From assembly GCA_965200315.1 (NCBI GenBank), contig OZ241362.1:3168001-3232000 (forward strand): DNA of 64,000 nucleotides. Direction: 5' to 3'. Below, piece after piece: positions 7,697 through 36,482 of the stretch. A model generated the notes under the pieces. The model searched no databases. It had not been told where the DNA came from and was given only the letters and a program-made list of their open reading frames with translations. Each line of letters opens with the position of its first letter. Positions within the stretch are counted from its first letter, which is position 1. Both the position numbers and the translations under genes were made by a program. The DNA comes from Candidatus Latescibacterota bacterium (GTDB lineage Bacteria > Latescibacterota > UBA2968 > UBA8231).

Positions 7697-8581
7697 TTAG
7701 CTAACCTGTTCGTGGTCGAGGTGCTTGCGCAGCCGCCGCCCGACCACGCCGATCTGGTGTTTGAAGTCTTGAAAAGTATAGCTCTGGTGAGATTTCCAGT
7801 AGGAGTTCCACAGTGCGTCGTCCTTGTCCTTGACCTCGGCTAGCTGCGTTAGCGAGCGGCCCAGTTCGGTGCGGCGGAAGTTGCGGTAGGCCTGCTCGGT
7901 CAGGTAGTAGCCGTATTGGGGATTGGCCACCTCATAGCCGTATTTAATCATGGAGCGTGGCTTGGCCGACCAATGCGCGGCGCGGGCGTGGAGAATCGAG
8001 GGAAAAGTCACGGCGAGGGCACCGGCCTTGACGACCACTTTCTGCTGCCCGCGGATCCAGCCCAGCTTAGCGGTCTGCGGCGGCGTGTAGAGCCGCCGGT
8101 GGCTGCCGGGCAACAGCATGGTCGGCCCCATGTCTTCCTCCACGTCCTGCGGGTAGTACATGCACAAAATCTCGCTCAGCGGCCGGTCGGACATATAGGT
8201 ATCGTCCACGTGCCAGCCGCCGCCGTCGCTTTGGCCGCCTTGCGTAAGGTGGTTCCAGAAGCGGAAGGGGCTGACGGCCACCGCGGGCGTCTCCAGCAGG
8301 AAGGCGATGAATTCGATGACCTTGGCGTGGCAGAGCAAGTCGCCGATGCTCTCGCACTCGAAGATGTCGATGGAGCCGTACTGGTGATTATCGGCGGCAG
8401 CCGTATCAACCACGGCACCCCCGGTCTCGCACTCGAAGATGTCGATGGAGCCGTACTGGTGAGCGTCTTGCTTGGTCCGTTCCACCAGCTCAGGCTCGAT
8501 CCAGCCGTCGAGTATGACGTAGCCGGTATCGAAGAATTCTTTTTTGAGCTTTTTCCAGTTGGCTTCCATGGCCTCCTCCAT
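7697..8581 (-). CDS. Phytanoyl-CoA dioxygenase (PhyH) family protein with internal 25-aa duplication/insertion
   Basis: FFDTGYVIL, WHVD, GPTMLLPGSH, ILHAR; HQYGSIDIFECE occurs twice. Confidence 0.85.
   Translation of the reverse strand: MEEAMEANWKKLKKEFFDTGYVILDGWIEPELVERTKQDAHQYGSIDIFECETGGAVVDTAAADNHQYGSIDIFECESIGDLLCHAKVIEFIAFLLETPAVAVSPFRFWNHLTQGGQSDGGGWHVDDTYMSDRPLSEILCMYYPQDVEEDMGPTMLLPGSHRRLYTPPQTAKLGWIRGQQKVVVKAGALAVTFPSILHARAAHWSAKPRSMIKYGYEVANPQYGYYLTEQAYRNFRRTELGRSLTQLAEVKDKDDALWNSYWKSHQSYTFQDFKHQIGVVGRRLRKHLDHEQVS
8350..8462. repeat. 38-bp perfect direct repeat separated by 37-bp unique insert
   Basis: TCTCGCACTCGAAGATGTCGATGGAGCCGTACTGGTGA at 8350-8387 and 8425-8462. Confidence 0.95.
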
Positions 8582-8984
8582 TTATCGGCGCTGGCCGTGT
8601 GGCGTGAAATCCAACCCCTCGCCGGGCCGGAAGTAGTGCTCTAGGATAAACTCGAACCCGAGTTGGTTGTGGGCATTTTCCAGCGGGTACTCCACGGTCG
8701 GAAAAGATACCACCCGCCACCCATCGGCCATAGCCGCGGCCACGCTGGCATACGGACATTCGTTTTTGGGGTCGAAGCGGAACTCGCTAGCGAAGGGGCC
8801 GAAGTAGTTCCACGCGATGACGCCCGCGTCGATGCGGTCTTGATCGGCCCAGATTGTAGAGGAGGTGCTGCTGCTCGCCTTCTTGTAGGTCGCGCAGCGC
8901 GTCTAAGTCCTGCAAGGTGACGCCCGAGCCGCTTAAAATTTTCTCTTGCGACTGGCGTATCCAGCCGTCTATGGCAGTGGTCAT
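8582..8984 (-). pseudogene. Conserved hypothetical protein upstream of PhyH, +1 frameshift
   Basis: MTTAIDGW...QQHLLY [extra A ~8855] IWADQDRIDAGVIAWNY...PYASVAAAMADGWRVVSFP...LGFEFILE; span is 3n+1. Confidence 0.7.
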
Positions 8985-9116
8985 ATCGGCTCCGGTGGAT
9001 TCAAAATTCGGCAGCAAATATAGAGCGGGCGAACAAATCGCCGCAAGCTCGACAGGGCTTGGCCGCTGGTATCCGTGCCCCTATGTTCTGAAGCCCAACA
9101 AAATCAGGAGGCTGTC

Positions 9117-9947
9117 ATGTCCCATCCGCTCTTCGACCTATCCAATCGCGTCGCCTTGGTCTCTGGGGCGGCTAGCGGCCTCGGCAAAGCTATGGCCACC
9201 GGCTTTGCCGAAGCAGGGGCCCACCTCGTCTTGGCCGACATTAACGCCGACGGTTTGGCCACGGCAGCCCGCGAAATGGGTGCCTTGGGCCGCCGCGTCC
9301 TCCCGGTGACGTGCGACATGTCCCAACCCGATCAGATTCGCACCATGTTTGAATCAATAGATGCGGAATACGGTCGCATCGACATCGTGGGCAATGTGGC
9401 CGGCAATGCGCGGCGCAACACCCCGCTCGACCTGACGCCCGAGGAGGTCGAGTTTACCCTGCAAAACCTCGTCGTCGGCCGCTTGGTCTGTTGCCAAGAG
9501 GCCGGCCGGCGCATGATGGCCTCGGGCCACGGCGGCAGCATCATCAACCTCGTGTCGATCGCCGGCATCAATGCCCTCGGCCGCAGTCACCTCTCGTACA
9601 GCATGGGTATGGGTGCGGCCGCGCAGATGACCCGCGAGTTGAGCACAGAGTGGGCCGCCAAGGGCGTGCGCGTCAACGCCATTGTCTGCGCCCAGCTAAT
9701 GAACGCGGACCTAAAGGAGCGCATCGCCGCGGATCCCGGGCTGGGCGCAACCTATTTGCACGGGCTCCCCATGGGCCGTCTCGGCAGCTCCAACGACATC
9801 AAGGGCGCGGCGATTTTCCTCGCTTCAGACGCCTCGGCTTGGATCACCGGCGCGATGCTGCCCCTAGACGGCGGCAACCTCTCCAAGAACGCCGGCGGCT
9901 CGCATCCGGGCATGCCCAACGCGCCCGCCGAACAGATTGGCCTCTAG
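9117..9947 (+). CDS. SDR family oxidoreductase
   Basis: VALVSGAASGLG, GVRVNAI, LPLDGG; catalytic YxxxK is atypical (YSMGM). Confidence 0.88.
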   Translation: MSHPLFDLSNRVALVSGAASGLGKAMATGFAEAGAHLVLADINADGLATAAREMGALGRRVLPVTCDMSQPDQIRTMFESIDAEYGRIDIVGNVAGNARRNTPLDLTPEEVEFTLQNLVVGRLVCCQEAGRRMMASGHGGSIINLVSIAGINALGRSHLSYSMGMGAAAQMTRELSTEWAAKGVRVNAIVCAQLMNADLKERIAADPGLGATYLHGLPMGRLGSSNDIKGAAIFLASDASAWITGAMLPLDGGNLSKNAGGSHPGMPNAPAEQIGL

Positions 9948-9950
9948 GCC

Positions 9951-10688
9951 ATGGATATTGGCATCTGGCAAACCATTCCCCAACCGGCAATTTCCCGCTA
10001 CTTGGGGCTGATGGGCTGGGACTGGATCGTCCTCGACCTCCAGCACGGCCCGATGACTTGGGAAACCGCCTATGAGTGCATCTACGCCGCTCGCCCAACC
10101 GGTGCTCGCCCCTTGGTCCGCACCTCCATTGGCAACCCCGGCGAAGTGGAGAAAGCCCTCGATATAGGAGCGGGTGGAGTCGTCGTGCCCATGGTCAACT
10201 CGCTTGCTGCGGCCCAAGCCGTCGCTCGCGCCGCCAAGTACCCACCCACCGGAGTGCGCTCGCTGGGCGGCGACCACTATCTCCACTACGGCGACTCCTA
10301 CTTTGAAAAGGCCAACGACGAGACCTTGCTCCTAGTGCAAATGGAACACATTGACGCTGTTGAGCAAGCCGAAGAAATCATGGCCCTGCCCGGCGTTGAT
10401 GGCTGCTTTGTCGGGCCGGTTGACCTAGCGCTATCGCTGGGCCTGTCCCGCCATCGCGCCAGCTACGAACAGCACCCGGCCTATCAGACGGCGATGGAGC
10501 GGATTGTCGCCACAACCCTTGCCGCCGGCAAAAAGCCCTGCTGTAACACGTATGCCCCCGAGGACTTCGCGGCCAAAAAAGCCGCCGGCTTCCAAGCCCT
10601 CACATTCAAGTCGGACCTCGACCTGCTTATGGACCGAGGTGCTCAACTACTAAGCTGTCTCAGGGGAAGCACCGGAGACGCCGTGTAA
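9951..10688 (+). CDS. HpcH/HpaI aldolase family protein
   Basis: DWIVLDLQHG, VVVPMVN, KYPPTGVRS, VQME, FVGPVDL. Confidence 0.9.
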   Translation: MDIGIWQTIPQPAISRYLGLMGWDWIVLDLQHGPMTWETAYECIYAARPTGARPLVRTSIGNPGEVEKALDIGAGGVVVPMVNSLAAAQAVARAAKYPPTGVRSLGGDHYLHYGDSYFEKANDETLLLVQMEHIDAVEQAEEIMALPGVDGCFVGPVDLALSLGLSRHRASYEQHPAYQTAMERIVATTLAAGKKPCCNTYAPEDFAAKKAAGFQALTFKSDLDLLMDRGAQLLSCLRGSTGDAV

Positions 10689-10716
10689 CACAAAGGCCAA
10701 ACGGACGGAGATTGCC

Positions 10717-11532
10717 ATGACCCTCACCTGCGCCGATGTAGATTTCGACCTCAAACTCGCCGAGTTCAAAATCAACGGCTACGCCGTCTTTGAGGACATG
10801 ATCCCCAGCGAAAAGATCGACCGGATCCGCGAGGCATTCCTGCCGCTATTGGCACACATCCAAGAGCGCGAAACAGAAGTTTCGAGTGTCGAACTCGGCG
10901 ACCCACGCATCGGCCAAGGGCGCTTGCAGACGACCAATCGCTACACCCTGACCATCCCGTGGATCGAACCTTTCGCCGACCCGGCCATTTACGAACACCC
11001 CGTCATCTTAGAATTCCTCGACCGCTTCTGGCGTCCCGACGGCTACGTCATCACCTGCTACCACTCCAATACCCCCTGCGCGGAAAGCGCCTTCCAACAG
11101 TGGCACCGCGACACCGGCATCGCCCGCGAGATCCCCCACGTCGGCCTCGAAACCGTCCCCGTAGTAGGCGTCAAGTTTCCCTTGGTCGAGACCTCGGAAG
11201 AAAACGGCAGCTTTGAGGTGCTTCCTTCGACTCAGTATATAGCCGACCCGGAATTTGAGGGGCGTTACGACGAAATCCTTCTCAAGGGCCACTTCCCCTC
11301 GGCCCATCGCCTCAACCTCAAAAAAGGCTCGATGTGGGTCCAAGACCCGCGCACCCTCCACCGCGGCACCCCCAACCGCACCCCAGACCCGCGCCCCGAG
11401 CTCGTCGTCTGCTACTGCCGCGACTGGTTCGCCATCGCGCAAAACGTCGAGATGCCACAGGCTTCCTACGAGTCGCTATCCGAAAAAGGTCAGCAGTTGC
11501 TAATGCGCTACCGGAAGGTCGAGTGGGATTGA
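10717..11532 (+). CDS. Phytanoyl-CoA dioxygenase (PhyH) family protein
   Basis: FKINGYAVF, QQWHRD, ENGSFEVLP, LHRGTPN. Confidence 0.88.
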   Translation: MTLTCADVDFDLKLAEFKINGYAVFEDMIPSEKIDRIREAFLPLLAHIQERETEVSSVELGDPRIGQGRLQTTNRYTLTIPWIEPFADPAIYEHPVILEFLDRFWRPDGYVITCYHSNTPCAESAFQQWHRDTGIAREIPHVGLETVPVVGVKFPLVETSEENGSFEVLPSTQYIADPEFEGRYDEILLKGHFPSAHRLNLKKGSMWVQDPRTLHRGTPNRTPDPRPELVVCYCRDWFAIAQNVEMPQASYESLSEKGQQLLMRYRKVEWD

Positions 11533-11552
11533 GTGTTGGCTCCCTACGCTCC

Positions 11553-11847
11553 TATAGCCGTCCTACATGCGTTGCAAGCGTGGAACGTTCAGCGGCACCG
11601 TGCGGCACCGTCTTCGCGGCGTTGTCGGCCGTAGGCGAGCGGGCGAGACGCCAGCGCACCCAGCCATGCTGCAGCTGTCTAGGCATTATAGTCTCCTAAG
11701 TTTAACGCGAGCGGGCGAGACGCCAGCGCACCCAGCCATGCTGCAGCTGTCTAGGCATTATAGTCTCCTAAGTTTAACGCGAGCGGGCGAGACGCCAGCG
11801 CACCCAGCCATGCTGCGCATCGTATAGAAGGACGTAGGATTGCTATA
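11553..11847. mobile_element. MITE with IS630-type termini carrying REP-like tandem repeat
   Basis: Left TATAGCCGTCCTAC (11553-11566), right GTAGGATTGCTATA (11834-11847); same terminus family as 4508-4615. Confidence 0.65.
11635..11816. repeat. Three 38-bp REP-like units separated by two identical 34-bp inserts (72-bp period)
   Basis: GCGAGCGGGCGAGACGCCAGCGCACCCAGCCATGCTGC at 11635, 11707, 11779; insert AGCTGTCTAGGCATTATAGTCTCCTAAGTTTAAC. Confidence 0.95.
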
Positions 11848-13084
11848 ACACTTCCCGGGCAACTCTGAGGATGTTGTCGCCGAGGATTTTGCGAATGTCG
11901 TCGTCGGCATAACCGCGTTGCACCATGCCGACCGTAAATAGGGGGAAATTGGTCCAAGCCGTACTCTGGAACATGCGCTCTTGACGCCACTCGGAGCGTT
12001 GCACGGGATCGTCGCTCTCCCATAGTGCCTCCCAGCGCGGGCGGCTGCCCGGTCGCGCTGGGACCTTGGCATTCTCTTCCTGGGCGCGGCAGCTAAGGTA
12101 CGCTCGATCCGTGCCAATCGTCACGTGATCGACGCCGACGACCTGCACCGCGTGGTCTATGTGATCGAGCATGGCGTCGATGCAGCCGCTGCCGCCGACA
12201 AAGGCCGGCACATTGGTGATGCCCACCGTTCCGCCCTTGTTGGCGATCGCTCTCATCACCTCGTCTGGCTTGCAGCGATGGTGGGGGTTCAGGGCTGCGC
12301 AGGCCGAATGGCTGGAGACGATTGGCTTTTGCGACACTTCGGCTGCGTCTAGGCAGGTCTGCCAGCCCGAGTGGGCCACGTCGGCAATCACGCCGGCCTT
12401 GTTCATCTCGGCGATCACAGCCCGGCCAAAGTCACTCAAACTGGCGTTAGCCGGCTCGGCACAGCCATCGCCAATCGGATTGCGGCGGTTGTAGGTCAGG
12501 TGCATCATGCGGCAGCCAAGCTCGAAGAACTGGCTGATGAAACGCAACTCCTGCTCGACAGTGGCCTGTTCTCCTGGGAGGGGTACGCCGTTACACGTCT
12601 GGTAAATGCAGTGGCGTCCGGCGGCTTTTGCTGCGACGATGTCGTCGGGGAAGGCCGCACGCGCCACGTGATCGCGCATGCGATCCGTCAGATGCGTATA
12701 GTGCGCTAGTCGCCCCAACATGCGCATGGGGTTATTGCCCTCCTCGCCGGCATTTTGAAAGGCGCAAGTCACTCCAGACGCCTCCCAAGCTCCCAAATAC
12801 TCGGCCTTTAGCTCGTCGTCGTAGGCCCAGCGCGTCATTCGCATCTGCTCCGACAGGTACTGCAGCTCGACTTCTGAGGCCCGCGCCTCCACGGCCTGCG
12901 CCATGACTTCGCCATCGATTGGCGCTAGCAGCCCGAGGCTGTACGACTCGCACACAATGGCGTCGCGGTGCAAGGCCAACCCGTGCTCCAACTGCGACGC
13001 GGATGGTTGCAGGATTTCGAGCGCCACAGCCCTCGCTTGTTGGATATTTTTTTCCCAAGTGGTCATGTATTCTTTCCTTTTCAC
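11843..13084 (-). CDS. Membrane dipeptidase (peptidase M19)
   Basis: LTYNRRN.IGDG, DVAHSG, SSHS, GVDHVTIGTD, KILGDN. Confidence 0.9.
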   Translation of the reverse strand: MKRKEYMTTWEKNIQQARAVALEILQPSASQLEHGLALHRDAIVCESYSLGLLAPIDGEVMAQAVEARASEVELQYLSEQMRMTRWAYDDELKAEYLGAWEASGVTCAFQNAGEEGNNPMRMLGRLAHYTHLTDRMRDHVARAAFPDDIVAAKAAGRHCIYQTCNGVPLPGEQATVEQELRFISQFFELGCRMMHLTYNRRNPIGDGCAEPANASLSDFGRAVIAEMNKAGVIADVAHSGWQTCLDAAEVSQKPIVSSHSACAALNPHHRCKPDEVMRAIANKGGTVGITNVPAFVGGSGCIDAMLDHIDHAVQVVGVDHVTIGTDRAYLSCRAQEENAKVPARPGSRPRWEALWESDDPVQRSEWRQERMFQSTAWTNFPLFTVGMVQRGYADDDIRKILGDNILRVAREVL

Positions 13085-13087
13085 GGG

Positions 13088-13372
13088 TCAATCAGGGATC
13101 AACTCAATGTTGAGGCGACATCCTACGGCCTCAGCGTATTTCCGCAGCGTCTCGACTTTGGGCGAGTGTTCACTGCTGGCAGACTCTAAGCGGGTGATCG
13201 CCGTCGCCTTCGTGCCCATCTTCTCAGCTACCTGCTCTTGAGTCAGGCCAGCCCGTTTTCGCGCTTCGAGCATCTTGCGCAGCAATTCAAGCTCGGGTGC
13301 TGCTGCATCAGACTTTTCTTTGTATTTAGGCTGCGACCGCATCTTTTCGATCAATTCTTTGTGCGTCATCAT
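13088..13372 (-). CDS. XRE-family HTH antitoxin (HigA-like)
   Basis: ARKRAGLTQEQVAEKMGT...ITRLES...TLRKYAEAVG. Confidence 0.88.
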   Translation of the reverse strand: MMTHKELIEKMRSQPKYKEKSDAAAPELELLRKMLEARKRAGLTQEQVAEKMGTKATAITRLESASSEHSPKVETLRKYAEAVGCRLNIELIPD

Positions 13373-13393
13373 CTTAATTCTTCATTCCTCCTA

Positions 13394-13466
13394 ATTTTGA
13401 GAATTCCTGAGTTCTGATAGCTACCTTCTGGCGGTTTCAAGCTCCTTATTTGGTGTCTTTTGAGAC
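13394..13466 (-). pseudogene. C-terminal remnant of RelE/Gp49-like toxin
   Basis: [18 protein letters not shown] immediately upstream of XRE gene, matching the KKxQKTPxxELxxAxxR toxin C-terminus. Confidence 0.65.
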
Positions 13467-13479
13467 TTCTACACCACCA

Positions 13480-13800
13480 CCCTCGTCTCCGTATCTCCCG
13501 CGGCCAGCGTTCATGTCGCGGGTGCGGTATGTTGCTTCATCTTCGCGGCGGACGATGAGGAAGGTGTCGAACACGTAGGCCGCGTCGTCCCGCGACAGGC
13601 CGTAGAGGTGGAAGTAGAGCGCGTCGAGACGGGCGCGCAGGTGGCGGCGTTCCTCCCGATTTCTGTGCAAGTGCATTCACCAAGTTGGGAAACACCCGCT
13701 CGAACACCACTCCCAAAAGGATCCTGCGCGACCTGTTCTTCCGTAGCGACGACCCTCAGCCAGCACCGCTTCGAGAAACGTAGTCGTAGCTCAAGCCGCC
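13480..13800 (-). pseudogene. Type IIG (Eco57I-like) restriction-modification enzyme relic
   Basis: [38 protein letters not shown] (two +1 shifts) joined to the C-terminal [40 protein letters not shown]. Confidence 0.7.
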
Positions 13801-13863
13801 GAGCGGCGAAATCCCCAAAGTGCCCGTGTCCGTGCATCCCTTTTTCGACAAGCGGACTCCTTA

Positions 13864-14002
13864 GCCGCCGTCTTAAAATGCCCGTCGGGTTGGCTTGCCC
13901 GGAGTAGTCTTGGCCGCCGGGGTTTTTCGCGGGCGAGACGCCCTCGAACCAAGGCTCTTTGAGCCAGTTGAGGAGCCGAACTTGGAGTTTTCAGACGGCT
14001 TC
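13864..14002. mobile_element. 139-bp IS5-type MITE with TTA target duplication
   Basis: Ends GCCGCCGTCTTAAAAT / GTTTTCAGACGGCTTC, flanked by TTA (13861-63) and TTA (14003-05); right end matches IS5 terminus at 51262. Confidence 0.75.
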
Positions 14003-14163
14003 TTAGTAGGTTTATGTGCCGCGGCCTTGGTTGGGCTCGGTGCGCTTTGCGTCCGCCCTACCGATCCGCCGTTTAACATGCCCCCCGCCTCATCTCTACA
14101 CCGGATCCAACGCTGACGCGGATGCAGCAGGCGAGGAGTTTTGGAGGATAGTGGCGTAGTGAT

Positions 14164-16254
14164 TTAACGCGCCGCCGTCAGCACCATCTGCCCAACCTCG
14201 TCGACACGCACTTGGTACTGAGGATGGACGACAGTGGTTGAATCGATCTCCTCGACGATGGCCGGCCCCTGCACTACCACACCAGCCCCCAGCGCATAGC
14301 GGTCGTACACCGGGCATTGGACAAAGCCGTCGCTTTCGGCAAAATACACTAGGCGATGCTCCTTAGCGGTCGCTGGTCCGGCGGCCTTGGCGATGGGGGC
14401 CAGCGCGGGTTTGGCAATCTGGCCGATGGCCGCAAGCCGCACACTGACTAGCTCGACAGGCTCGCCCGGCGCACTAAAGCCATAGGCGCGATCGTGGGTG
14501 CGGTGGAACTGTTCGAGTAGCTGCTCTAGCTGCGCTGGGCCCAAGGCTTTGTTTGCCAATGGCAGCGTCAGCTCGTGGCTCTGCCCAACGTAGCGCATAT
14601 CCGCTTGCCGTCTGAAGGCCATCGCCGCTTCCGCCATCCCTTCGCGCCCCAGCGTTTCTCGCCCCTGCGCCTCTAACTCGCGGAAGGTCTGCTCCAAGGC
14701 TTGGGGAGCTACTTGGTCCAACCGCTGGATGAGGGTGGTCGCGTAATCGTGCTTTAGGTCCGTTACCAACAGGCCCAGTGCCGAGGCCGTGCCCGGACTT
14801 TGGGGAATGATCGCCACGGGAATCTCGGTCAGGGCGGCGAGGCGGTTGGCGTGGGCCGGCCCGGCGCCGCCAAAGGCTACCAGCGCGAAATCGCGCGGGT
14901 CGTAGCCGCGCTGTACGGAGACGAGCCGCAGTGCGTTGACCATGGCGGTGTTGGCGATCTCGACGATGCCATAGGCCGCCTCGACTAGGTTCATGCCCAG
15001 CGGCTGGGCGCAGTGTTGTTCGATGGCGCGTTGCGCGGCCGCCGGGTCGAGGGCGATTTCGCCGCCGAGAAAATAGCTCGGGTTGAGCCGGCCCAAGACG
15101 AGGTTGGCGTCGGTGACCGTGGGTTGCGTCCCACCTTGGCCGTAGCAGACCGGCCCGGGATCGGCCCCGGCGCTTTGGGGGCCGACCCGCAGGATACCGC
15201 CGGGATCTACCCAAGCGATGGACCCGCCACCCGCGCCGATTTCCACGAGGTCAATCACCGGGGTGCGAATCGGATACCCCGCACCGCGAGTCGCCCCAAC
15301 GCCCGTTTGCGCCGTCGTCCCGACCTCGTAGTCCTTGGTCACGCTGGGCGCACCGTCTTGAATCAGCCCGGCTTTGGCGGTCGTCCCGCCCATATCGAAG
15401 GAAATCACTTGGCCGTAGCCCCGTGCCTGCCCCAAATGCGCTGCCGCAATCACCCCGGCGGCCGGACCGGACTCAACCATGTACACCGGCTTTTGCCGCG
15501 CCGCCGCAAAGGTGTACACTCCACCGCTACTCTGCATTACGAGCAACTCAGCGGCGATGCCGGCCTGTGCCAACCGATCTTCGATCCGCTGCAAATAGCG
15601 CGCGACCACCGGGCGGATGCAGCTATTAATCGCGGTCGTGCTGGCCCGCAAGTACTCGCGGAACTCAGGTGCAACTTCCGCGGATAGCGAGACGACGGCC
15701 TCGGGGAAGACTTCGGCGAGAATCTCTCCGGCTCGCTGCTCGTGGACGGGATTGGCGTAGGCGTGCAAAAAGCAGACGGCGATGGATTCCACGCCCTCGT
15801 CGCGTAGCTTGCCCGCTACTTGGCGCAGGGCGTCTTCGTCGAGCGGGATCAGCACGGACCCGCTGGCATTGAGGCGTTCGGGCACGCCAAAACAGCGGTG
15901 CCTCGGCACGAGTGGCCGGGGTTTTTCAAACTGCAAGTCGTAGAGGGTCGGGCGAATCTGGCGGGCGATTTCCAGCATATCGCGGAAGCCGTCCGTGGTG
16001 ATAAAGCCGGTCGGCGCGACCTTGCCCTCGATGATGGCGTTGGTGGCGACTGTGGTGCCGTGGACGATGTAGGCCACGTCTTGGGCAGCAACCTGCTGCT
16101 TGGCGAGCAGCCGCTGCACGGCTTCCATAAACCCGCCGGATGGGTCTTGGGGAGTGGAAGAAACCTTGCCGGTATAGATTTGTCCGGTCTCTTCGTCAAT
16201 GAGCGCAATATCGGTAAAGGTGCCGCCGATATCGACGCCGAGTCTATAGGCCAT
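14164..16254 (-). CDS. Hydantoinase A / 5-oxoprolinase family subunit
   Basis: MAYRLGVDIGGTFTD, HGTTVATN, SGPAAG, DMGGTT, GAGGGS; start taken at ATG 16254. Confidence 0.93.
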   Translation of the reverse strand: MAYRLGVDIGGTFTDIALIDEETGQIYTGKVSSTPQDPSGGFMEAVQRLLAKQQVAAQDVAYIVHGTTVATNAIIEGKVAPTGFITTDGFRDMLEIARQIRPTLYDLQFEKPRPLVPRHRCFGVPERLNASGSVLIPLDEDALRQVAGKLRDEGVESIAVCFLHAYANPVHEQRAGEILAEVFPEAVVSLSAEVAPEFREYLRASTTAINSCIRPVVARYLQRIEDRLAQAGIAAELLVMQSSGGVYTFAAARQKPVYMVESGPAAGVIAAAHLGQARGYGQVISFDMGGTTAKAGLIQDGAPSVTKDYEVGTTAQTGVGATRGAGYPIRTPVIDLVEIGAGGGSIAWVDPGGILRVGPQSAGADPGPVCYGQGGTQPTVTDANLVLGRLNPSYFLGGEIALDPAAAQRAIEQHCAQPLGMNLVEAAYGIVEIANTAMVNALRLVSVQRGYDPRDFALVAFGGAGPAHANRLAALTEIPVAIIPQSPGTASALGLLVTDLKHDYATTLIQRLDQVAPQALEQTFRELEAQGRETLGREGMAEAAMAFRRQADMRYVGQSHELTLPLANKALGPAQLEQLLEQFHRTHDRAYGFSAPGEPVELVSVRLAAIGQIAKPALAPIAKAAGPATAKEHRLVYFAESDGFVQCPVYDRYALGAGVVVQGPAIVEEIDSTTVVHPQYQVRVDEVGQMVLTAAR

Positions 16255-29635: not shown

Positions 29636-30424
29636 ATGACCGCTCTCCACGCCTCCGCGCTCAGTCCCGCCGAACTCGACCAGTTTCACGATCAAGGCTA
29701 CGTGCGCCTCGGCCACGTCGCTTCCCGCGAGGAAATCGACGCCCTCTGCCAGCGCATCGACCAGATCATGCTCGGCGAAGTGCGCTACGACAATATGCTC
29801 ATGCAGCTCTGCCCTTCGGCCGGCAATCCCGAGCTTTCGCGGCAGACCAAGGAGTTTAAGGGCTCTTCGCTGAAGTACCGCAAAATTCAGGACCTGGAGC
29901 AGGATCCGCTGTTCTTGGGCTATATGCAAAAGCCGCTCTTCCGCGACTTAACCGCCAAAATCGTCAGCGCGGAGGTCTCGATTTTTCGCGCCATGTTTTT
30001 CAACAAGCCCGCCGAGCAGGGCGTCCTGATCAACTGGCACCAAGACGGTGTTGGCGGCTGGCAACTGAGCATTCCCCCCAAAGTCACGGTGTGGACCGCG
30101 CTCGACGACACGTGCGTTGCCAACGGTTGCCTACAGATCATCCCCAGCTCGCACCACACCATGATCCCCGAGACGGGCGACCAGCTCTCGGCGGACGAGC
30201 GCGCGTTGCACGCCCCGGATGAGAAGCGGCTCTATTTGGAAATGGAAAAAGGCGAGGTGGTGCTTTTGCACAACTGGACGTTGCACCGCTCGGAGACGAA
30301 TAGCACCAATCACCCGCGCCGTGCGTTCAGCGTTTGCTACATTGACGCAGCTACCCGCCAAAAGACCTCGGGCTGCGCCTTTCCCCGCGTCTTCCCGACC
30401 TACCAGCCTATTACAGATAATTGA
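29636..30424 (+). CDS. Phytanoyl-CoA dioxygenase (PhyH) family protein
   Basis: FHDQGYV, FFNKP, WHQD, WTALDD...NGCLQIIP, LHRS; ATG 29636 after AAGGA. Confidence 0.9.
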   Translation: MTALHASALSPAELDQFHDQGYVRLGHVASREEIDALCQRIDQIMLGEVRYDNMLMQLCPSAGNPELSRQTKEFKGSSLKYRKIQDLEQDPLFLGYMQKPLFRDLTAKIVSAEVSIFRAMFFNKPAEQGVLINWHQDGVGGWQLSIPPKVTVWTALDDTCVANGCLQIIPSSHHTMIPETGDQLSADERALHAPDEKRLYLEMEKGEVVLLHNWTLHRSETNSTNHPRRAFSVCYIDAATRQKTSGCAFPRVFPTYQPITDN

Positions 30425-31859
30425 TAAAGGCGACCTTGTGCTCGGTGAAAAACTCGATCCCAGTGTCGCCCGACTCGGGGATTCCGTGCCCGGAAGCCTT
30501 GACCCCGCCGAATGAGAGTTGGGGCTCGCGGTAGGCCGTCATCATGTTCACATGCGTCAGCCCCACGTCGGTCTGTTCTAAAAACTGAAAAGCCCGCCCA
30601 ATGTCCCGCGTGAAAATGGACGACGCCAGCCCAAACTCCACGCCATTGGCGATTTCTAGGGCCTCGGAGAAATCCTCCGCTACCATCAGGCACAACACCG
30701 GGCCGAAAATTTCTTCTTGAGCGATGCGCATCTGCGGCTGGACATTGGTAAAAACCGTCGGCGCAATAAAACACCCTTTGTCGAGACCGTTGTCGGTCAG
30801 GCGCTCGCCTCCATGTGCGATGCAGGCCCCTTCCGCTTTGCCGATCTCGATGTAGCCCTCAATGGTTTCGAGCTGGTCCGTGCCGCACACCGGCCCCATA
30901 TCCACCCCGTCTTCTGTCCCATTTCCCACGCGAATTTGCTTGACGCGCTCTAGCACTTTGTCGGTGAAGGCTGCGGCGATCTCGTGCTCGGCAATGGCCC
31001 GGCTCGTCGAAGTACACCACTGCCCGGCGCAGGCGTAAGCTGCCTTGACGACCGCATCCGCGGCCATGTCGAGGTCGGCGTCGGCCAAGATAACCGCGGG
31101 ATTTTTGCCGCCCATCTCCAGTTGCGTGCGGATGATCCCTTGGGCGGCGCGCTGCTGAATGCCCCGGCCCACTTGGGTCGATCCGGTGAAGGAAATCGAC
31201 TGCACCAACGGATGCGTGATCATGGTTTCCCCGACTGTACTGCCCCCGCCGCAGACGAAGTTCAGCACGCCCGGGGGCAATTCCGCCTCGGCAAAAATAT
31301 CGACGAAAGCCCGCCCGGCTCCAGGCGTCAGGCTCGCCGGTTTGAAGACGATGGTGTTGCCGCTGATCAGCGCTGGGGTACACTTGCGACCCGGCACGTT
31401 GAACGGAAAATTCCAAGGGCTGATGATCGACGCCACTCCGAGGGGCCGCCGCACGCTGTAGGCAAACACCCCAGCTTGCGCCGAGGGCGCGGTCTGGCCG
31501 CACATGGAGATTCCTTGGGCGATCTGGAACTCCATCTCGCGCACCGCCGATCCCACCTCGGTGCGCGCTTCGTCGAGCGTCTTGCCGTTTTCTGCGGTGA
31601 GGATGGCGGCGATTTCTTCGGCCCGCCCCTTTAGCACGGCGACCGCCCGCGACAAGTACTCCGCTCGCTGGTACACCCCCATGTCAGCCCACGCTGGAAA
31701 CGCCGCGTGCGCCGCTTCGATGGCCTGCTCGGCGTCGGCGCTGGTGCCTTGGGGCCACTCCCCGGTTACTTGCTCTAGGTCGGCTGGATTGCGCTGGGCA
31801 AAGGTCTTTCCGTCCGAGGCCCCAACCCACTGACCGTCGATGTAGTTTTGAGATTGCAT
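30411..31859 (-). CDS. Aldehyde dehydrogenase family protein
   Basis: SPWNFP, SFTGS, LEMGGKN, AGQWCT, EEIFGP. Confidence 0.93.
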   Translation of the reverse strand: MQSQNYIDGQWVGASDGKTFAQRNPADLEQVTGEWPQGTSADAEQAIEAAHAAFPAWADMGVYQRAEYLSRAVAVLKGRAEEIAAILTAENGKTLDEARTEVGSAVREMEFQIAQGISMCGQTAPSAQAGVFAYSVRRPLGVASIISPWNFPFNVPGRKCTPALISGNTIVFKPASLTPGAGRAFVDIFAEAELPPGVLNFVCGGGSTVGETMITHPLVQSISFTGSTQVGRGIQQRAAQGIIRTQLEMGGKNPAVILADADLDMAADAVVKAAYACAGQWCTSTSRAIAEHEIAAAFTDKVLERVKQIRVGNGTEDGVDMGPVCGTDQLETIEGYIEIGKAEGACIAHGGERLTDNGLDKGCFIAPTVFTNVQPQMRIAQEEIFGPVLCLMVAEDFSEALEIANGVEFGLASSIFTRDIGRAFQFLEQTDVGLTHVNMMTAYREPQLSFGGVKASGHGIPESGDTGIEFFTEHKVAFINYL

Positions 31860-31887
31860 AGTAGCTCCAGTTAAAAGTGATGGCGAC

Positions 31888-33045
31888 TCAAGACCACAGC
31901 GGCACCCCGGCCGGCAGCGCCGCGGCGATGGCTTCTTCGTCTAGATTGACGCCCAAGCCAGGGCCGTCGGGCACGGCGATGTAACCCTGTTGAATTGGGT
32001 TCTTGATGTCGAGCATGGTGCCCCACAGTGGGATGTTGCGCGAGTGGTGCTCTAGGGCGAGGAAATTGGGCAGGGTGGAACAGATATGCACCGCGGCCAT
32101 GCCCGTAATCGCGCTCCGCATGTAGTGGGGGGCTACCGACATGTGGTACATCTCGGCCAGCTCGGCGATGCGGCGGATTTCAATGGCGCCGCCGCTGTGG
32201 GGGATGTCCGGTTCCAGTAGGTCGCAGGCCTGTTGTTCCATTAACTCGCGGAACATCTTGGCGCCGTAGAAAATCTCGCCGGTGCAGATCGGCGTCTCGG
32301 TCTGCTGACAGATTTTGGCCAGGGCGGCGACATTGCCCCACTCCCAGCGGATGGGGTCCTCCAACCAAAGCAGGTCGAGGTGCTCCACGTCTTTGCAGAT
32401 GCGCAGGGCGTCGGCGAGGTTGAAGGAACCGTGCAAGTCGATAGATAAGTCGATGTAAGGGCCAATCGCGTGGCGCAGGCTTTCGATGGTGGTGACGATG
32501 TGGTGGTGCTGCCGGCGGCTGATGGAGCGGTCGTAGGTGTCGAGCTTCCAAGGGTTGGGCACGTCGAGATCGAACTTGATCGCGGTGTATCCTTCGGCTA
32601 CCACCTCTTGGGCCATGGACACGTAGGCGCTGGTTTCGTACACCGGATCCAATTGCCCGCTGGCCCGCGTCTCCTGCCAGCGCCGCTCGTAGTCTTCCCG
32701 CGTCCAGTGTGCGCCCGAGTGGCAGTCGCAGTACACGCGGATGCGGTCGCGCAGTTTGCCGCCCAGCAGCTCGTGCATAGGTGCGTTTAGCTGCTTGCCG
32801 CGGATGTCCCACAGGGCGATTTCCACGCCGGCGCCGCGGCCCTGCATCTGCCACAGGTGATCGTAGTGAAGCTGATTGATGTTGGTCGGGTCGCGGCCGA
32901 TGATCATTCGTTTGAGCTGCTCGATGGCCCCCCCAGCCCACTCGCCAAGGCCGACAATGCCTTCGTCCGTGAAAATTTTCAGCAAGGACCAGTGGCGATT
33001 TTCAGCGCCGAGGGAGGGCGTAACCTTAATGTCGGTGATCTTCAT
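31888..33045 (-). CDS. Mandelate racemase / muconate lactonizing enzyme family protein
   Basis: EIALWDIRGK...LLGG, KFD, DLH, WLEDP, TGE, APH, GPGLG. Confidence 0.9.
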   Translation of the reverse strand: MKITDIKVTPSLGAENRHWSLLKIFTDEGIVGLGEWAGGAIEQLKRMIIGRDPTNINQLHYDHLWQMQGRGAGVEIALWDIRGKQLNAPMHELLGGKLRDRIRVYCDCHSGAHWTREDYERRWQETRASGQLDPVYETSAYVSMAQEVVAEGYTAIKFDLDVPNPWKLDTYDRSISRRQHHHIVTTIESLRHAIGPYIDLSIDLHGSFNLADALRICKDVEHLDLLWLEDPIRWEWGNVAALAKICQQTETPICTGEIFYGAKMFRELMEQQACDLLEPDIPHSGGAIEIRRIAELAEMYHMSVAPHYMRSAITGMAAVHICSTLPNFLALEHHSRNIPLWGTMLDIKNPIQQGYIAVPDGPGLGVNLDEEAIAAALPAGVPLWS

Positions 33046-33073
33046 GGTCTCTCTTTCGCTGGCAAACATAAGA

Positions 33074-33106
33074 AAGCGCGACTTCGGATGTGCAGAAGTC
33101 GCGCTT
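33074..33106 (-). terminator. Intrinsic terminator-like hairpin
   Basis: AAGCGCGACTTC-9nt-GAAGTCGCGCTT with T-rich tail on the minus strand. Confidence 0.65.
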
Positions 33107-33239
33107 AAAGATGGTGGAGGGCCTGCAGCCTTTCCAAAATCCGCGATCTCCTTATTCGTTCGTTGACTTACAGATCGCTACAAACATCAGCGGATGACTC
33201 TCCGAGGTGCCGATCACGGAAGTTTCCGCCTTCTTATGG

Positions 33240-33416
33240 TCAAAATAGGTTCCGCTGAGACATGGGGTCAAGGATGTCCTGCCAGTTGAGTACGCCCTCG
33301 TATTCGCGCACGACCGGTTCGATCTCCTCCTGCACATTGAGCAAGCCGCGGGCGAGGAGATAGCCCTCCTCCTGAAAATGTTCACGCGCATGGTTGATAT
33401 CGCTGTTGTCGGTGCT
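33240..33416 (-). pseudogene. N-terminal fragment of a PhyH-family dioxygenase
   Basis: AREHFQEEGYLLARGLLNVQEEIEPVVREY, then truncated. Confidence 0.6.
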
Positions 33417-33425
33417 GTAACACCT

Positions 33426-34871
33426 TTATTCGTCCACGACCTCCAGTATAGAGCCGTCGGGCTGAATCCGCCGCCTTTCCGCCTCGACCTCCTCAAACCA
33501 CCCCTCCAACGCCCCGAGCATTCGGCTCGCACGCTCCGACTCATCCGTCGCCATGTTGTTCTGTTCAAGCGGGTCGTCGTCAATATTGTAGAGCTCCAAA
33601 TCAGCCGGCGGCGGGACAATCAACTCGGGATCCGGCTCGCGCATCAGCTCCGTCACCTCGTCGGGGTGGTATTTGTATTGGATATCCACTTCCACGTAGC
33701 GCTCCATCACGCGCTTATCCGCATCGGTCTTGGGCTTTTGCGCCAACTGGGGACGGACCAGCTTCCACGGCCCCTCGCGCATCGCCGCGTTGATCCAGCC
33801 GACGGGCTGAAATTGGTTGAGCTGCCAAAATCGCGCCGGAGCGTCATCGCCGGTGCCGCGCAACACCGCCGCGGCGTCGCGCCCGTCTAGGGGCCGCCTG
33901 CCGGGCGGCTCGATACCGCACAACCCGGCTAATGTCGGCAACCAATCCATACCGTGCACCAACTCGTCGACCTGCCGCCTCCCCTCCAACCCGCCGCGCC
34001 AGCGCACGATCATCGGCACCCGGATGCCGCCCTCGTAAACCGACCCTTTCTGCCCGTTAAAGCCGCAATTGTAGCGCCGTAAATCCGTGCTCATCCCCTC
34101 GGGCACTTGGTCGGGTCGCGTTCCAAACGCCGGTCCGTTGTCGCTGGTGAACATCAGGATCGTATCGTCCGCCAGCCCCAGAGCATCCAAGGTTTCCGCG
34201 ATCCGCCCGACGCCCCGATCCATGATCTCGTTCATCGCGTAGGTAATCGCCACACCCGGGCTCATCCCTGCGTCGAGATAGGGTTGTACCGCCTCGTCGG
34301 GGGCCTGCAACGGCGTATGCGGCGCATTGTACATCATGCAGAGCAGAAAGGGGTCCTGCCGGTGCCGCGTAATAAAATCCACCGCCTCGTCGGTGAACAC
34401 ATCGGTCAAATAGCGCCCGTCCGCGGTCTCGCGCCGCCCGTTGCGCTCGACCCACCAGTCAAAATAATCCATCCACCCGCCGCGAAAGCCCAAAAACTCA
34501 TCGAAGCCGCGTGCGTTGGGATGATAGCGATCGTCAAGTGCTCCATTGTGCCACTTGCCGATCAGCCCCGTCGCATACCCCGCGTGTTTGTACGCATCGC
34601 CGATGGTCTCCTCGTCGAGCGCGATGCGGTCCATCCCGCGCACCTCCATCGGTGTCAACGCGCCGGTGCGGTGCGGGTAACGACCCGTAAGAAGCGCCGC
34701 CCGCGACGGCGAGCAGGCCGGCGAGCCGGCGTAGTGTTGGGTCAGACAGACCCCCTCGCCAACCAGTGCGTCGAGATGGGGTGTGCGGGCCGGGCCGTCG
34801 TTAAAAACGCCGAAATCGCCATAGCCCATGTCGTCGGCGACGATAAGAATCACATTGGGTCGTTTTGGCAT
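33426..34871 (-). CDS. Arylsulfatase (FGly-dependent sulfatase)
   Basis: PNVILIVADD, CSPSRAALLTG, GKWH, SDNG. Confidence 0.95.
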   Translation of the reverse strand: MPKRPNVILIVADDMGYGDFGVFNDGPARTPHLDALVGEGVCLTQHYAGSPACSPSRAALLTGRYPHRTGALTPMEVRGMDRIALDEETIGDAYKHAGYATGLIGKWHNGALDDRYHPNARGFDEFLGFRGGWMDYFDWWVERNGRRETADGRYLTDVFTDEAVDFITRHRQDPFLLCMMYNAPHTPLQAPDEAVQPYLDAGMSPGVAITYAMNEIMDRGVGRIAETLDALGLADDTILMFTSDNGPAFGTRPDQVPEGMSTDLRRYNCGFNGQKGSVYEGGIRVPMIVRWRGGLEGRRQVDELVHGMDWLPTLAGLCGIEPPGRRPLDGRDAAAVLRGTGDDAPARFWQLNQFQPVGWINAAMREGPWKLVRPQLAQKPKTDADKRVMERYVEVDIQYKYHPDEVTELMREPDPELIVPPPADLELYNIDDDPLEQNNMATDESERASRMLGALEGWFEEVEAERRRIQPDGSILEVVDE

Positions 34872-35124
34872 TACGATTATCCTTAGTCGTAAAGAAATTT
34901 CAAGAGAGTCTCATGTGATCTCGCCCGCCGCGCTCCTCCACCCAGATGTTATGAATAACGTCGTTGAGAGTCAGCGTAATGTTTAATCCGCTGCCTAGCG
35001 CGTCTCCAAACCAGCTAAGACTTCGCGGAAGCTGTTGAGACTGAAATCGGTGGTGTGGGAGTGAAGTTATTAGATGAGGTTGCAAAAAGAGGGTGGGCTA
35101 CTGCTATAACAGTGCCTTTCAAGA

Positions 35125-35165
35125 CAAACGTCTCTCCGGAGAATCACCCCGAAGAGACGTTTGTG
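35125..35165 (-). terminator. Long hairpin immediately downstream of ssrA
   Basis: ACAAACGTCTCT...AGAGACGTTTGT 12-bp stem. Confidence 0.65.
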
Positions 35166-35175
35166 TGTGGAAGAA

Positions 35176-35534
35176 TGGTGGAGGCGGCGGGAATCGAACC
35201 CGCGTCCGAGACCGGTTCTACCGAAATATGCTACGTGCGTAGTCGGCCTTAGTTATCTCGCCTGTTGCGCTGCCGGCCAACGGGCCACGCAACAGGCCAG
35301 CCCGAAAAATCTCGCCCCATTCCCTCGGGCGAAGGTTTGGGACCAGCCTGCTAAGAGATGGCATTGGGGCCTGCCGCGCAGGCTCAACAGACCCCAATGG
35401 GCTGCTCTAAATTTAGGCAGCCAGAGCGTACGTGTTATTTTCGTCGCTTAATTGTTTCCCGAGGATTTACGAGGTGTCGGGACCTCGGCACGCAATTTGG
35501 GCTTCTCCGACCCCGTCGAAGCCAAGTCGCCCCC
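35176..35534 (-). ncRNA. ssrA: Transfer-messenger RNA
   Basis: 5' GGGGGCGACTTGGCTTCGAC; 3' GCGGGTTCGATTCCCGCCGCCTCCACCA; internal tag (A)DENNTYALAA* at 35445-35413. Confidence 0.97.
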
Positions 35535-35574
35535 TTGGAGCATAATAACCGAAAATCGAGCGCAATGTCAACGC

Positions 35575-36393
35575 TTAGTTCACCTTATTCTGTGGGTTAA
35601 GAACGACCAGTTCCGCCGGCTGCAGCCGGCTGTCCGGTGAGTAGAGGCAAACCCGGTAGATCTCGTTGTTCTCGATCAGGAACTCGTTGCCCCAGAATAG
35701 GATGGCGTTGTGCGGCGCGTCGTGGATCAGGTTGTGGGCCAAGCGCATGCCGACCCCGTCGGCCCCGATGCCGGCGACATAGCAGCGGGTCCAGCGCGCA
35801 AAGTGGTGGATATGGTTGTTGACGACGGCGTGGTTGCAGGGGGTCAGACTGGGGCGGTCGCCGCCGCTGACGCTGATTCTTGGCCCCACGGGTTGGACAT
35901 CGGCTTGGTGAAGCCGGTGATTGCGGCGAACTGCCCGGCATTGGGCCACTGGGCCACGGTCATGGGCAGGTCACTGAAGAAGAGCTCCAGATGGGCCGGT
36001 GCCGTGTCGCGGCCGAACCCGCGCGAGACAAAAGCGCCAAGGTCTGTCATACCCTCGGCGGTCAGATCGATCTGCACGTCGTGCTCCTTCGCCGCCTCGG
36101 CCAGACGGGCCCGGCCGCGGGATCGATCACGGGCATCCACGCCGCCGGGTCGAGCTGCCGGCCGCCTAGGAGGCGCACCGTCTCGCCCTCGGCAGGGCAA
36201 TACACGGTGGGGCTGCGGCCGTGCCCGAGTCCTCCGGGCCGAAGTGTACGCCGTGCGCCAGTGCGTGAACCCCACTGCGGACCCGGACCTTCAGGCCACC
36301 GGTGGGTAGGCCGGAGGTCGCCTTTAGTTCCCGGACTGCATCTCGGGCACCTTCGAGCGTGGCGAACGGCCTGCCGTCATTGAGCTCTGCCAT
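35575..36393 (-). pseudogene. Right-handed beta-helix (pectin lyase fold) protein, multiply frameshifted and deleted
   Basis: Fragments PFATLEGARDAVR, LELFF...AQWPN and NNHIHHF...HNLIHDAPHNAI...ENNEIYRV in three frames. Confidence 0.8.
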
Positions 36394-36482
36394 GTCATTT
36401 TCCTCAACCAAGACGAAAACTAACCCAACAAGGAGACCAACATGTTGCCGTCATTAAGCTCTGCCATGTCCCTCTCCTCAAC
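36372..36482. repeat. 37-bp imperfect direct repeat separated by 37-bp insert
   Basis: TGCCGTCATTGAGCTCTGCCATGTCATTTTCCTCAAC (36372-36408) vs TGCCGTCATTAAGCTCTGCCATGTCCCTCTCCTCAAC (36446-36482). Confidence 0.9.

Follow-up and report, generated by a model that had tools for sequence, protein, structure and literature searches.

Three loci in the window (the whole 64,000-nucleotide stretch of DNA analysed), at positions 8350-8462 (hereafter referred to as L1), 11635-11816 (L2) and 36372-36482 (L3), are very probably scars of full-site integration of spacers outside the CRISPR arrays (off-array or non-canonical integration), carried out by the Cas1-Cas2 of the host, a sponge-associated bacterium with a genome of 5.36 Mb and 59% G+C. 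All three insertions are derived and measure 72-75 bp, of which 37-38 bp duplicate the local target (hereafter referred to as R) and the remaining 34-37 bp are an unrelated insert (hereafter referred to as S). The CRISPR-like geometry originally predicted for these loci was confirmed in its coordinates and lengths, as were the contexts assigned to the repeats (a coding segment for L1, a REP-like element for L2 and a ribosome-binding site/start region for L3), but L2 corresponds to a single integration, the product of which was later duplicated, rather than to two integrations. Events of this kind are already known from experiments in E. coli, and natural polymorphic cases are rare.

In the mechanism that we propose, Cas1-Cas2 loaded with a 33-39-nt prespacer would target ordinary chromosomal DNA and make two strand-transfer cuts on opposite strands, separated by one repeat length (36-37 bp). 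Gap repair would then copy the DNA between the cuts, yielding a target copy, the insert and a second target copy (R-S-R), and at L2 a second R-S unit may have been gained through recombination or slippage between the repeats. We infer the identity of the enzyme, the module acting at each site (among four) and the reason for the choice of site.

Four Cas1 matches above the cut-off were found in the genome, all outside the window, consistent with the earlier statement that the window contains no cas genes. The genes around Cas1 were typed as I-G, I-C, III-B and a primase-polymerase/Cas1/Cas2 module; Cas2 adjoins two of the four Cas1 genes, and Cas4, I-C, I-G and III-B genes lie nearby. As expected from the original prediction, which called for a host CRISPR system with repeats of ~36-38 bp, five arrays are present outside the window. 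Their repeats are 36-37 bp and their spacers mostly 34-43 nt long, which gives an array period of 70-80 bp:

A1: repeat 36 bp, spacers 36-38 nt
A2: repeat 36 bp, spacers 34-36 nt
A3: repeat 37 bp, spacers 31-53 nt (mode 39), 245 spacers
A4: repeat 37 bp, spacers 37-65 nt (mode 40), 109 spacers
A5: repeat 37 bp, spacers 34-36 nt

The genome-wide scan of repeat lengths suggested with the prediction revealed a sharp peak at periods of 71-79, matching the period of the host arrays. No exact repeat of 36-38 nt is expected by chance in 5.36 Mb. Ten isolated non-tandem repeat pairs (period range 45-130) had periods of 69-79, with none at 45-60, 62-68 or 80-91. After curation, insert-type pairs with an R of 36-40 bp amounted to eight which, together with L2, make nine loci at periods of 71-79; elsewhere in the 45-130 range there was only one, with a period of 99. 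R was 36-40 nt long in the eight loci fitting the model (38, 38 and 37 in the window), versus 36-37 in the arrays; the frequent lengths of 38 nt, and the single case of 40, require one to three chance-matching junction bases. The inserts of the window loci (37, 34 and 37 nt) fall within the range of array spacer lengths, and the flank-similarity scores of these loci (-13 to -2) never reach the 99th percentile of the null distribution.

Beyond the window, the E5211927 site is empty in eight congeners by coordinates (5/5 where aligned) and the E2346916 site in 1/1. E590036, E601439 and E3594305 had no informative orthologous site among the five genomes searched. Three pairs were rejected as insertion scars. 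E1858064 and E3821005 were removed from the set because of homology between their “spacer” and the upstream flank, and E3516597 has homologous flanks; all three are ordinary tandem or coding repeats. One pair within the peak, E2365231 (R = 36), contradicts the model, in that congeners natively have R and S and lack only the second R; it is a 36-nt insertion copied from a sequence lying 43 bp upstream, and its target was not duplicated.

L1 lies inside a PhyH-family gene, with the following features (strand is given here and below for genes only):

7697-8581, minus strand: PhyH-family dioxygenase ORF hosting L1 (from its translation; Pfam PF05721, E = 5e-9)
8350-8387: target copy R1, 38 nt, identical to 8425-8462; single-copy in congeners
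8388-8424: insert (“spacer”), 37 nt, absent in congeners; matches A3 spacer no. 105
8425-8462: target copy R2, 38 nt, identical to R1

The insertion is in frame and adds 25 residues to the ORF, with duplication of HQYGSIDIFECE. It is missing, with a single R in its place, in all 13 congeners with the locus (9/9 where aligned). Contigs of a near-identical strain from two other samples (runs X2 and X3; 4 and 8.5 kb) also lack it, with a clean 75-nt skip joining 8349 to 8425, for which 38 letters fit on either side. Conversely, in X18 and X19, from an independent study, a 97-nt record (8358-8454) spans the insert between partial R copies. L1 is polymorphic between near-identical co-occurring strains and, given this polymorphism and the identity of its R copies, is a recent event. 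Aligned with A3 spacer no. 105, its insert is identical at 24/25 positions in the core and 29/36 overall, at a 2-nt offset (42.1 bits, E = 7e-8), a score reached by none of 20,000 random genomic 37-mers (best 36.2 bits). The insert resembles a spacer of the largest array of the host and is homologous to it. It is unrelated to both flanks, the better of its flank-similarity scores (-2) lying near the 95th percentile of the null distribution (-1).

L2 is found in a dispersed element, and comprises three exact repeats and two copies of the insert:

11553-11850: REP/MITE-like dispersed element hosting L2, between convergent PhyH-family and M19 dipeptidase genes
11635-11672: repeat copy 1, 38 nt, exact
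11673-11706: insert copy 1, 34 nt, 38% G+C (59% for the genome)
11707-11744: repeat copy 2, exact
11745-11778: insert copy 2, same sequence as copy 1; from a secondary duplication of R-S
11779-11816: repeat copy 3, exact

The locus is an exact 72-bp tandem unit present 2.5 times (TRF score 364, 100% matches), with a 38/34/38/34/38 layout. The identity of the two 34-nt “spacers” indicates that a single R-S unit was later duplicated, rather than that two separate inserts were acquired. Indirect empty-site support comes from the absence of the whole host element in four genomes (G022, G020, G006 and G023), in which the flanking genes abut without segment 11553-11850, and from the other members of the family, which have one R: about 25 related copies in the same genome contiguously fit a single-R model, with the 38-mer present once. 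The insert has no further copy in its own genome and was found in 0/30 congeners with up to three mismatches allowed.

L3 duplicates the start region of a short minus-strand ORF:

36166-36393, minus strand: 75-codon ORF with duplicated ribosome-binding site and start; no Pfam family
36372-36408: target copy R1, 37 nt, providing the working ribosome-binding site and ATG (36393-36391, minus strand) of the downstream ORF
36409-36445: insert, 37 nt, 43% G+C, unrelated to both flanks
36420-36467, minus strand: 15-codon upstream ORF, MAELNDGNMLVSLLG followed by a stop (translation); the duplicated start in R2 reads into the insert
36446-36482: target copy R2, 37 nt, 33/37 (89%) identical to R1
36485-37441, minus strand: D-2-hydroxyacid dehydrogenase, upstream operon neighbour; stop codon 2 nt from R2

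Besides the ribosome-binding site, the repeat includes the 22 nt with which the 75-codon ORF begins. The site is empty in four congeners (G022, G011 and G008, aligned, and G020, by coordinates), and R-S-R was observed at this locus in 0/24 genomes, one of which has other intergenic DNA. With four differences between its copies, L3 is an older event. The view that the inserts are not ancestral was thus upheld by the empty sites of L1 and L3 and the absence of the L2 spacer from congeners, although no donor was found for the L2 or L3 insert.

The window loci resemble arrays A1-A5 of the same genome in repeat length, spacer length and period, and in the occasional duplication of R-S. Unlike these arrays, they contain just two or three copies of a locally derived repeat, lack a second, different spacer and have no cas genes beside them. 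Functional arrays were rejected for L1 and L3, which have only two repeats unlike any host repeat, and for L2, which has three repeats but identical spacers, and a repeat unlike those of the host. As the R copies are unlike real repeats, the window loci appear, from their sequences, most likely to be inert scars rather than working mini-arrays.

A mechanism independent of Cas proteins could leave the same footprint if an unknown integrase, or a templated break-repair process, inserted fragments of ~35 nt with or without a target duplication of ~37 bp. Such a process could accommodate E2365231, which canonical Cas1-Cas2 chemistry does not explain, and the failure to detect a repeat-like or leader-like target motif. 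We nevertheless consider it improbable, because both the duplication and the insert match the host's own arrays in length, the L1 insert has a relative among the genuine array spacers and the host has four Cas1-Cas2 modules. We know of no other enzyme class for target duplications of ~37 bp. The proposal of a resident CRISPR integrase with a ~37-bp ruler therefore draws support from the host arrays, the genome-wide peak, the empty sites and the L1 spacer homology, and the alternative put forward with it, an unknown integrase with the same chemistry, is not needed.

No integrase would be involved if a unit of ~72-75 bp had undergone ordinary tandem duplication or replication slippage and half of it had then diverged; this scenario is less probable still. 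L2 is formally a perfect 72-bp tandem repeat (x2.5), and the three pairs rejected above, in or beside the period range, are repeats of this type. However, the inserts of L1, L2 and L3 are unrelated to either flank even though their R copies share 89-100% identity, only one R and no vestige of S is present in relatives (L1 and L3), R is single in the other REP-family copies, and slippage predicts neither a peak at the host CRISPR period nor the match between the L1 insert and an array spacer. An artefact of metagenome assembly, conceivable for a single-contig metagenome assembly with an estimated contamination of 7.8%, has a negligible probability and is refuted for L1 and L2, as the L1 insert is present in X18/X19 from a different study and cleanly skipped in X2/X3, and the L2 R-S-R record 11643-11736 is unaltered in all four compared runs; the duplications of both loci, for which lack of sequencing support had been raised as a possible objection, are carried by independent contigs.

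Returning to integration by the host Cas1-Cas2, exact donors were identified for two loci outside the window: the insert of E601439 exactly reproduces genome positions 713048-713084, and that of E2346916 positions 1179590-1179622, both donor sequences being distant from the insertion. These two exact protospacers are too few for a PAM to be judged. The inserts of L1, L2 and L3 had no exact match in viral_contigs, nor did those of L1 and L2 in metagenome_contigs. The search for insert sources proposed earlier therefore yielded an array-spacer match for L1, but no foreign donor for any of the three. The similarity of the duplicated targets to the five repeats and four leader-repeat junctions was within the distribution for random sites, and there was no general excess of hairpins (P = 0.66). 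Likeness of the target to the repeat or leader junction is not required by Cas1-Cas2 chemistry.

In two separate copies of one REP-like family, L2 and E3594305 start at an identical position, each with a period of 72. A rather speculative extension, which we regard as doubtful, is that off-array integration might repeatedly act as a natural source of mutations in this lineage, with the dispersed REP-like hairpin acting as a register-specific landing pad. If so, L2 (R-S-R-S-R) would be a nascent array, a new CRISPR locus born from a dispersed repeat family in a wild population, and the same process would write in-frame protein insertions (L1) and new upstream ORFs (L3).

Nivala, Shipman and Church reportedly obtained off-target integration and “neo-CRISPR” loci in 2018 by overproducing the type I-E Cas1-Cas2 of E. 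coli. The loci described here are like those neo-CRISPR loci in having a spacer-sized insert between repeat-length copies of non-CRISPR chromosomal DNA, with a resident integrase. They differ in that the events occurred naturally and have been fixed or are still polymorphic in a wild population, that one of them is in frame within a coding gene, and that the host repeats are 36-37 bp long (I-C, I-G, III-B-linked and primase-polymerase-linked modules), versus 28 bp for the I-E repeat of E. coli. One study describes the detection of rarer off-target integrations in E. coli (PMC7054753). For Pyrococcus furiosus, another report states that Cas1-Cas2 alone completed full-site integration in vitro at some non-CRISPR sites, and that these off-target sites had sequence features in common with the repeat (PMC6698737). 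No such similarity was detected here, the reuse of a REP-like hairpin in a specific register being a possible exception. Ectopic spacer acquisition within arrays is described for Streptococcus thermophilus and S. mutans (PMC7999890, PMC8265633). As portrayed there, the integrase likewise misses the leader-proximal repeat, but the target is a genuine internal CRISPR repeat, whereas the loci studied here duplicate unrelated host sequence far from the arrays. The parts of the literature consulted offer only circumstantial evidence for natural off-target Cas1-Cas2 integration.

To the extent covered by these sources, off-target integration has so far been seen in vitro and in E. coli overproducing the enzyme, and has rarely been documented in nature. 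The genome analysed here holds a compact natural record of about eight scars sized like the host's own arrays, including one that is polymorphic, one with an insert related to an array spacer, one in frame within an enzyme gene, two with exact self-donors and two at the same register of a hairpin element. This record makes it possible to test the frequency of chromosomal damage or remodelling caused in the host by CRISPR adaptation, the target preferences of integrases with a 36-37-bp ruler and the seeding of new arrays by off-array integration. Finally, duplicated R-S units were also observed within genuine arrays (A1 and A6).

The original prediction, that three loci of the window are ectopic Cas1-Cas2 integrations, was supported: the loci are real and derived, and pairs of this kind elsewhere in the genome peak in length at the periods of the host arrays. 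We consider it very probable that L1, L2 and L3, in each of which a target (R) is duplicated around an insert (S) in the order R-S-R, were generated by off-array integration by Cas1-Cas2. Their components are as follows.

Loci of the window and the sequences hosting them
7697-8581, minus strand: ORF of 294 codons, Pfam PhyH (E = 5e-9), hosting L1
8350-8387 and 8425-8462: R copies of L1, the same 38-mer, with 37 nt between them
11553-11846: 294-bp segment holding L2
11635-11816: L2, an exact 72-bp unit present 2.5 times (TRF score 364)
36372-36408 and 36446-36482: R copies of L3, 37-mers with 33/37 identical positions, 37 nt apart

The geometry predicted for L1 and L3 was found on reading the window, and the contexts assigned to their repeats, a coding segment and a ribosome-binding site with a start region, were also borne out. 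L1 lies in frame within the PhyH-family ORF, adding 25 residues, with HQYGSIDIFECE duplicated in the translation. At L3, the duplicated target includes the ribosome-binding site of a 75-codon ORF together with its first 22 nt; this ORF is located on the minus strand, behind a D-2-hydroxyacid dehydrogenase gene. A 15-codon ORF now starts in the upstream copy and extends into the insert.

Comparison with sister genomes identified single-copy empty sites for both loci. The L1 locus was found in 13 of the 40 relatives searched and was empty in all 13, each giving a split match with the two halves overlapping on one R; nine of these relatives were aligned, and matched an empty-site model of L1 end to end without gaps. 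The L3 site was empty in four of 24 congeners (G022, G011, G020 and G008), both flanks overlapping on a single R. A fifth (G007) carried an unrelated 84-bp intergenic sequence with no duplication, only the right flank was matched in the other 19, and the R-S-R structure of L3 was present in none of the 24 congeners searched.

The stretch of the window between positions 7900 and 12300, which covers L1 and L2, is partly present in 20 public sequencing runs. We compared the contigs of four: X2 and X3, other samples of the probable source study, and X18 and X19, from a different study. The strain in X2 and X3 differs by 22 to 24 single letters across 4.4 kb and has an empty L1 site: one contig in each run (4.0 kb and 8.5 kb) passes directly from position 8349 to position 8425, so that exactly 75 nt are absent, and 38 letters at the joint fit either side. 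X18 and X19, with no or one difference, each contain a 97-nt record at 8358-8454, comprising the L1 insert and 30 nt of R per side. L1 is polymorphic between near-identical strains, and is either very recent or has been lost again through recombination between its two R copies. The R-S-R record of L2 (11643-11736) was present without differences in all four runs compared; its word depth relative to its neighbours varied between runs, and one figure per contig gives no copy number. L1 and L2 are not assembly artefacts, because the contigs of the compared runs carry these records. Joints skipping 227 or 317 nt were rejected, as their sides were shorter than 30 letters; they probably correspond to other REP copies or other organisms.

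The genome is a single 5.36-Mb contig with a G+C content of 59%, of which the window occupies bases 3,168,001-3,232,000. Four Cas1 matches exceeded the Pfam cut-off, all of them outside the window, in agreement with the claim that the window contains no cas genes. The genuine CRISPR arrays (A1-A7) and the cas sets beside them, typed with NCBIfam on the neighbouring ORFs, are listed below.

CRISPR arrays and neighbouring cas sets of the host genome
A1: repeat 36 bp, spacers 36-38 nt, 11 repeats; adjoined by a type I-G set at the contig end
A2: repeat 36 bp, spacers 34-36 nt, 7 repeats
A3: repeat 37 bp, spacers 31-53 nt (mode 39), 245 spacers; preceded by a CRISPR-associated primase-polymerase with Cas1 and Cas2
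A4: repeat 37 bp, spacers 37-65 nt (mode 40), 109 spacers; preceded by a type III-B Cmr set with a Cas_APE2256 protein and Cas1
A5: repeat 37 bp, spacers 34-36 nt, 26 spacers; preceded by a type I-C-like set with Cas4, Cas1c and Cas2
A6: repeat 28 bp, spacers 36-40 nt, 17 repeats
A7: repeat 29 bp, spacer 32 nt, 2 repeats

The host therefore has several integrases with 36-37-bp rulers, as anticipated from the repeat length of about 37 bp, and its array periods are about 70 to 80 bp. The primase-polymerase (NF040561, E = 6e-107; genome 125620-128823) lies directly before Cas1-Cas2 and the 18.6-kb, 245-spacer array (129082-147678). The contig begins inside a CRISPR array (1-840) and ends inside the Cas4/Cas1g gene of the type I-G locus (5350001-5359245); the point at which the circle closes is therefore within the I-G locus, where some sequence may be missing.

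The whole genome was scanned at every lag between 45 and 130 for pairs with at least 29/34 matches, leaving out arrays, short-period repeats, full tandem repeats and clustered coding repeats. This yielded 31 isolated pairs, 10 with periods of 69-79 and two with a period of 61, none having periods of 45-60, 62-68 or 80-91; the remainder had periods of 92-126, most of them multiples of three. Candidates elsewhere in the genome are designated E followed by their genome coordinate. A “spacer” homologous to its flank was considered to indicate ordinary tandem duplication, which led to the removal of E1858064 (period 69), with a spacer homologous to the upstream flank and an R-S-R structure conserved in 24 congeners, and of E3821005 (period 77; 54/23). 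E3516597 was removed as a coding repeat, its flanks being homologous to each other. The curated set, with an R of 36-40 nt and an unrelated insert, contained eight isolated loci with periods of 71-79, at genome coordinates 590036, 601439, 2346916, 2365231, 3176350 (L1), 3204372 (L3), 3594305 and 5211927, plus L2. A single pair with an R of 36-40 nt had a period outside this range (99). The scan proposed in the original prediction thus revealed a sharp length peak, at 71-79, coinciding with the array periods of the host. The two pairs of period 61 (712921-713013 and 4787341-4787436), located in REP-like DNA and with an R of 32-35 nt, fit no resident adaptation module. An I-E-like mini-array of two repeats at 4569431 (29+32) has the same period, but the genome yielded no Cas1 of I-E type.

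Outside the window, the E5211927 site was empty in eight congeners on the basis of coordinates and in all five that were aligned, and the only genome that had both flanks of E2346916 showed an empty site there. For E590036, E601439 and E3594305, no orthologous site with both flanks was found in five genomes.

The search for the origin of the inserts linked the L1 insert to an array spacer and identified no donor for L1, L2 or L3. Spacer no. 105 of A3 (genome 137005-137042) agrees with the L1 insert at 24/25 positions in the core and at 29/36 overall, with a 2-nt offset. Against the 413 array spacers, this match scored 42.1 bits (E = 7e-8), compared with a maximum of 36.2 bits among 20,000 random genomic 37-mers. 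As seven positions differ, the insert is not a copy of this spacer; it resembles a piece of a related invader acquired from almost the same position. Exact scanning of viral_contigs gave no match to the L1, L2 or L3 inserts or to A3 spacer no. 105, and a metagenome_contigs scan gave none to the L1 and L2 inserts; such scans require an exact or near-exact match, so a diverged donor would be missed. The 37-nt insert of E601439 is identical to genome positions 713048-713084 on the other strand, and the 33-nt insert of E2346916 to positions 1179590-1179622. Because the latter identity continues into the R copies, by 1 and 2 nt, E2346916 may in reality be divided as 35-37 plus 34-36. Both loci demonstrate the copying and pasting of fragments that are spacer-sized and have defined ends. 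Each self protospacer (713028-713104 and 1179570-1179642) lies between a 3-nt inverted pair (ctc...gag and cct...agg), but two cases are too few for a PAM or processing signal to be called.

The lengths of L2 can be read as 38/34/38/34/38, as proposed, but its two 34-nt “spacers” are identical to each other. The second R-S unit is best explained by recombination between repeats. A1 and A6, which are genuine arrays, show internal duplication of the same kind. L2 is flanked by convergent genes, a second PhyH-family gene and an M19 dipeptidase gene, which abut in G022, G020, G006 and G023, where the 294-bp segment is absent. This segment belongs to a dispersed REP-like family, confirming the predicted context of the repeat, and the single-R model matches about 25 other places in the same genome contiguously. 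No second locus for the 34-nt insert was found in the genome itself, nor any match with up to three mismatches in 30 congeners. The reverse complement of the insert (11673-11706) resembles a ribosome-binding site and start codon. It shares 12 identical nucleotides (AATGCCTAGACA), possibly by chance, with the start of a CARF-type cas gene (genome 590036-590050), itself a duplicated target.

In full-site integration by Cas1-Cas2, staggered strand transfers are followed by gap repair, which duplicates the target. The simplest account of the loci would be such integration at non-CRISPR DNA, with two strand transfers occurring one repeat length apart and the intervening 36-37 bp being duplicated by gap repair. 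The observed R is often 38 nt long, a length that requires bases at a junction to match by chance. Judging by period, L2 and E3594305 (both 72) and E2346916 (71) may be attributable to the module of the I-C-linked A5 (71-73), and L1 (75), with its insert related to an A3 spacer, to that of A3 or A4; the R of 36 in E601439 would fit the 36-bp ruler of A1 or A2. One member of the curated set, retained as an exception, contradicts off-array integration. E2365231 (2365231-2365345) has the structure R36/S43/R36, and four congeners have the native R and S, lacking only the second R. It is a 36-nt insertion that copies a sequence lying 43 bp upstream and has duplicated no target, which canonical spacer integration does not explain.

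The similarity of the targets to five array repeats and to four leader-repeat junctions was within the null obtained from random sites, and as a set they were not unusually structured (mean folding energy −7.2 versus −7.8 kcal/mol, P = 0.66). The sole hint of target choice is a shared register: in two different REP-like copies, L2 and E3594305 begin at the same position.

Overproduced Cas1-Cas2 of E. coli reportedly integrates off-target, and such events are said to be capable of seeding “neo-CRISPR” loci (Nivala et al., 2018). This E. coli work is described in PMC7054753 and bioRxiv 10.1101/148544, the latter presenting the natural evidence, from two other species, as circumstantial. According to PMC6698737, Cas1-Cas2 of P. 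furiosus integrates off-target in vitro. The “ectopic” acquisition of streptococci differs in that the integrase uses the internal repeats of genuine arrays (PMC7999890 and PMC8265633). In the literature searched, which mostly excluded subscription journals, we found no off-array case that was both natural and polymorphic within a population. The kind of event is already known, and the present genome is an unusually rich natural example.

The scars are clustered, with three within 28 kb of the window (8350-36482), two 11 kb apart, flanking the III-B locus, and a further two at 2.35 Mb separated by 18 kb. Cumulative GC skew had no clean minimum and gave no landmark for placing the window relative to the origin or terminus; no cause of the clustering was found. 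E590036 (590036-590148) is a 38/37/38 insertion at the start of the Cas_APE2256/CARF-type gene preceding the III-B Cas1. It duplicates the start codon and first 12 codons in frame, and its copies have three differences, all synonymous third-codon changes. Within the window, positions 4733-5530 contain a family of diverged direct repeats, unrelated to the R-S-R loci and 189-378 bp apart (multiples of three), resembling a repeat-protein gene.
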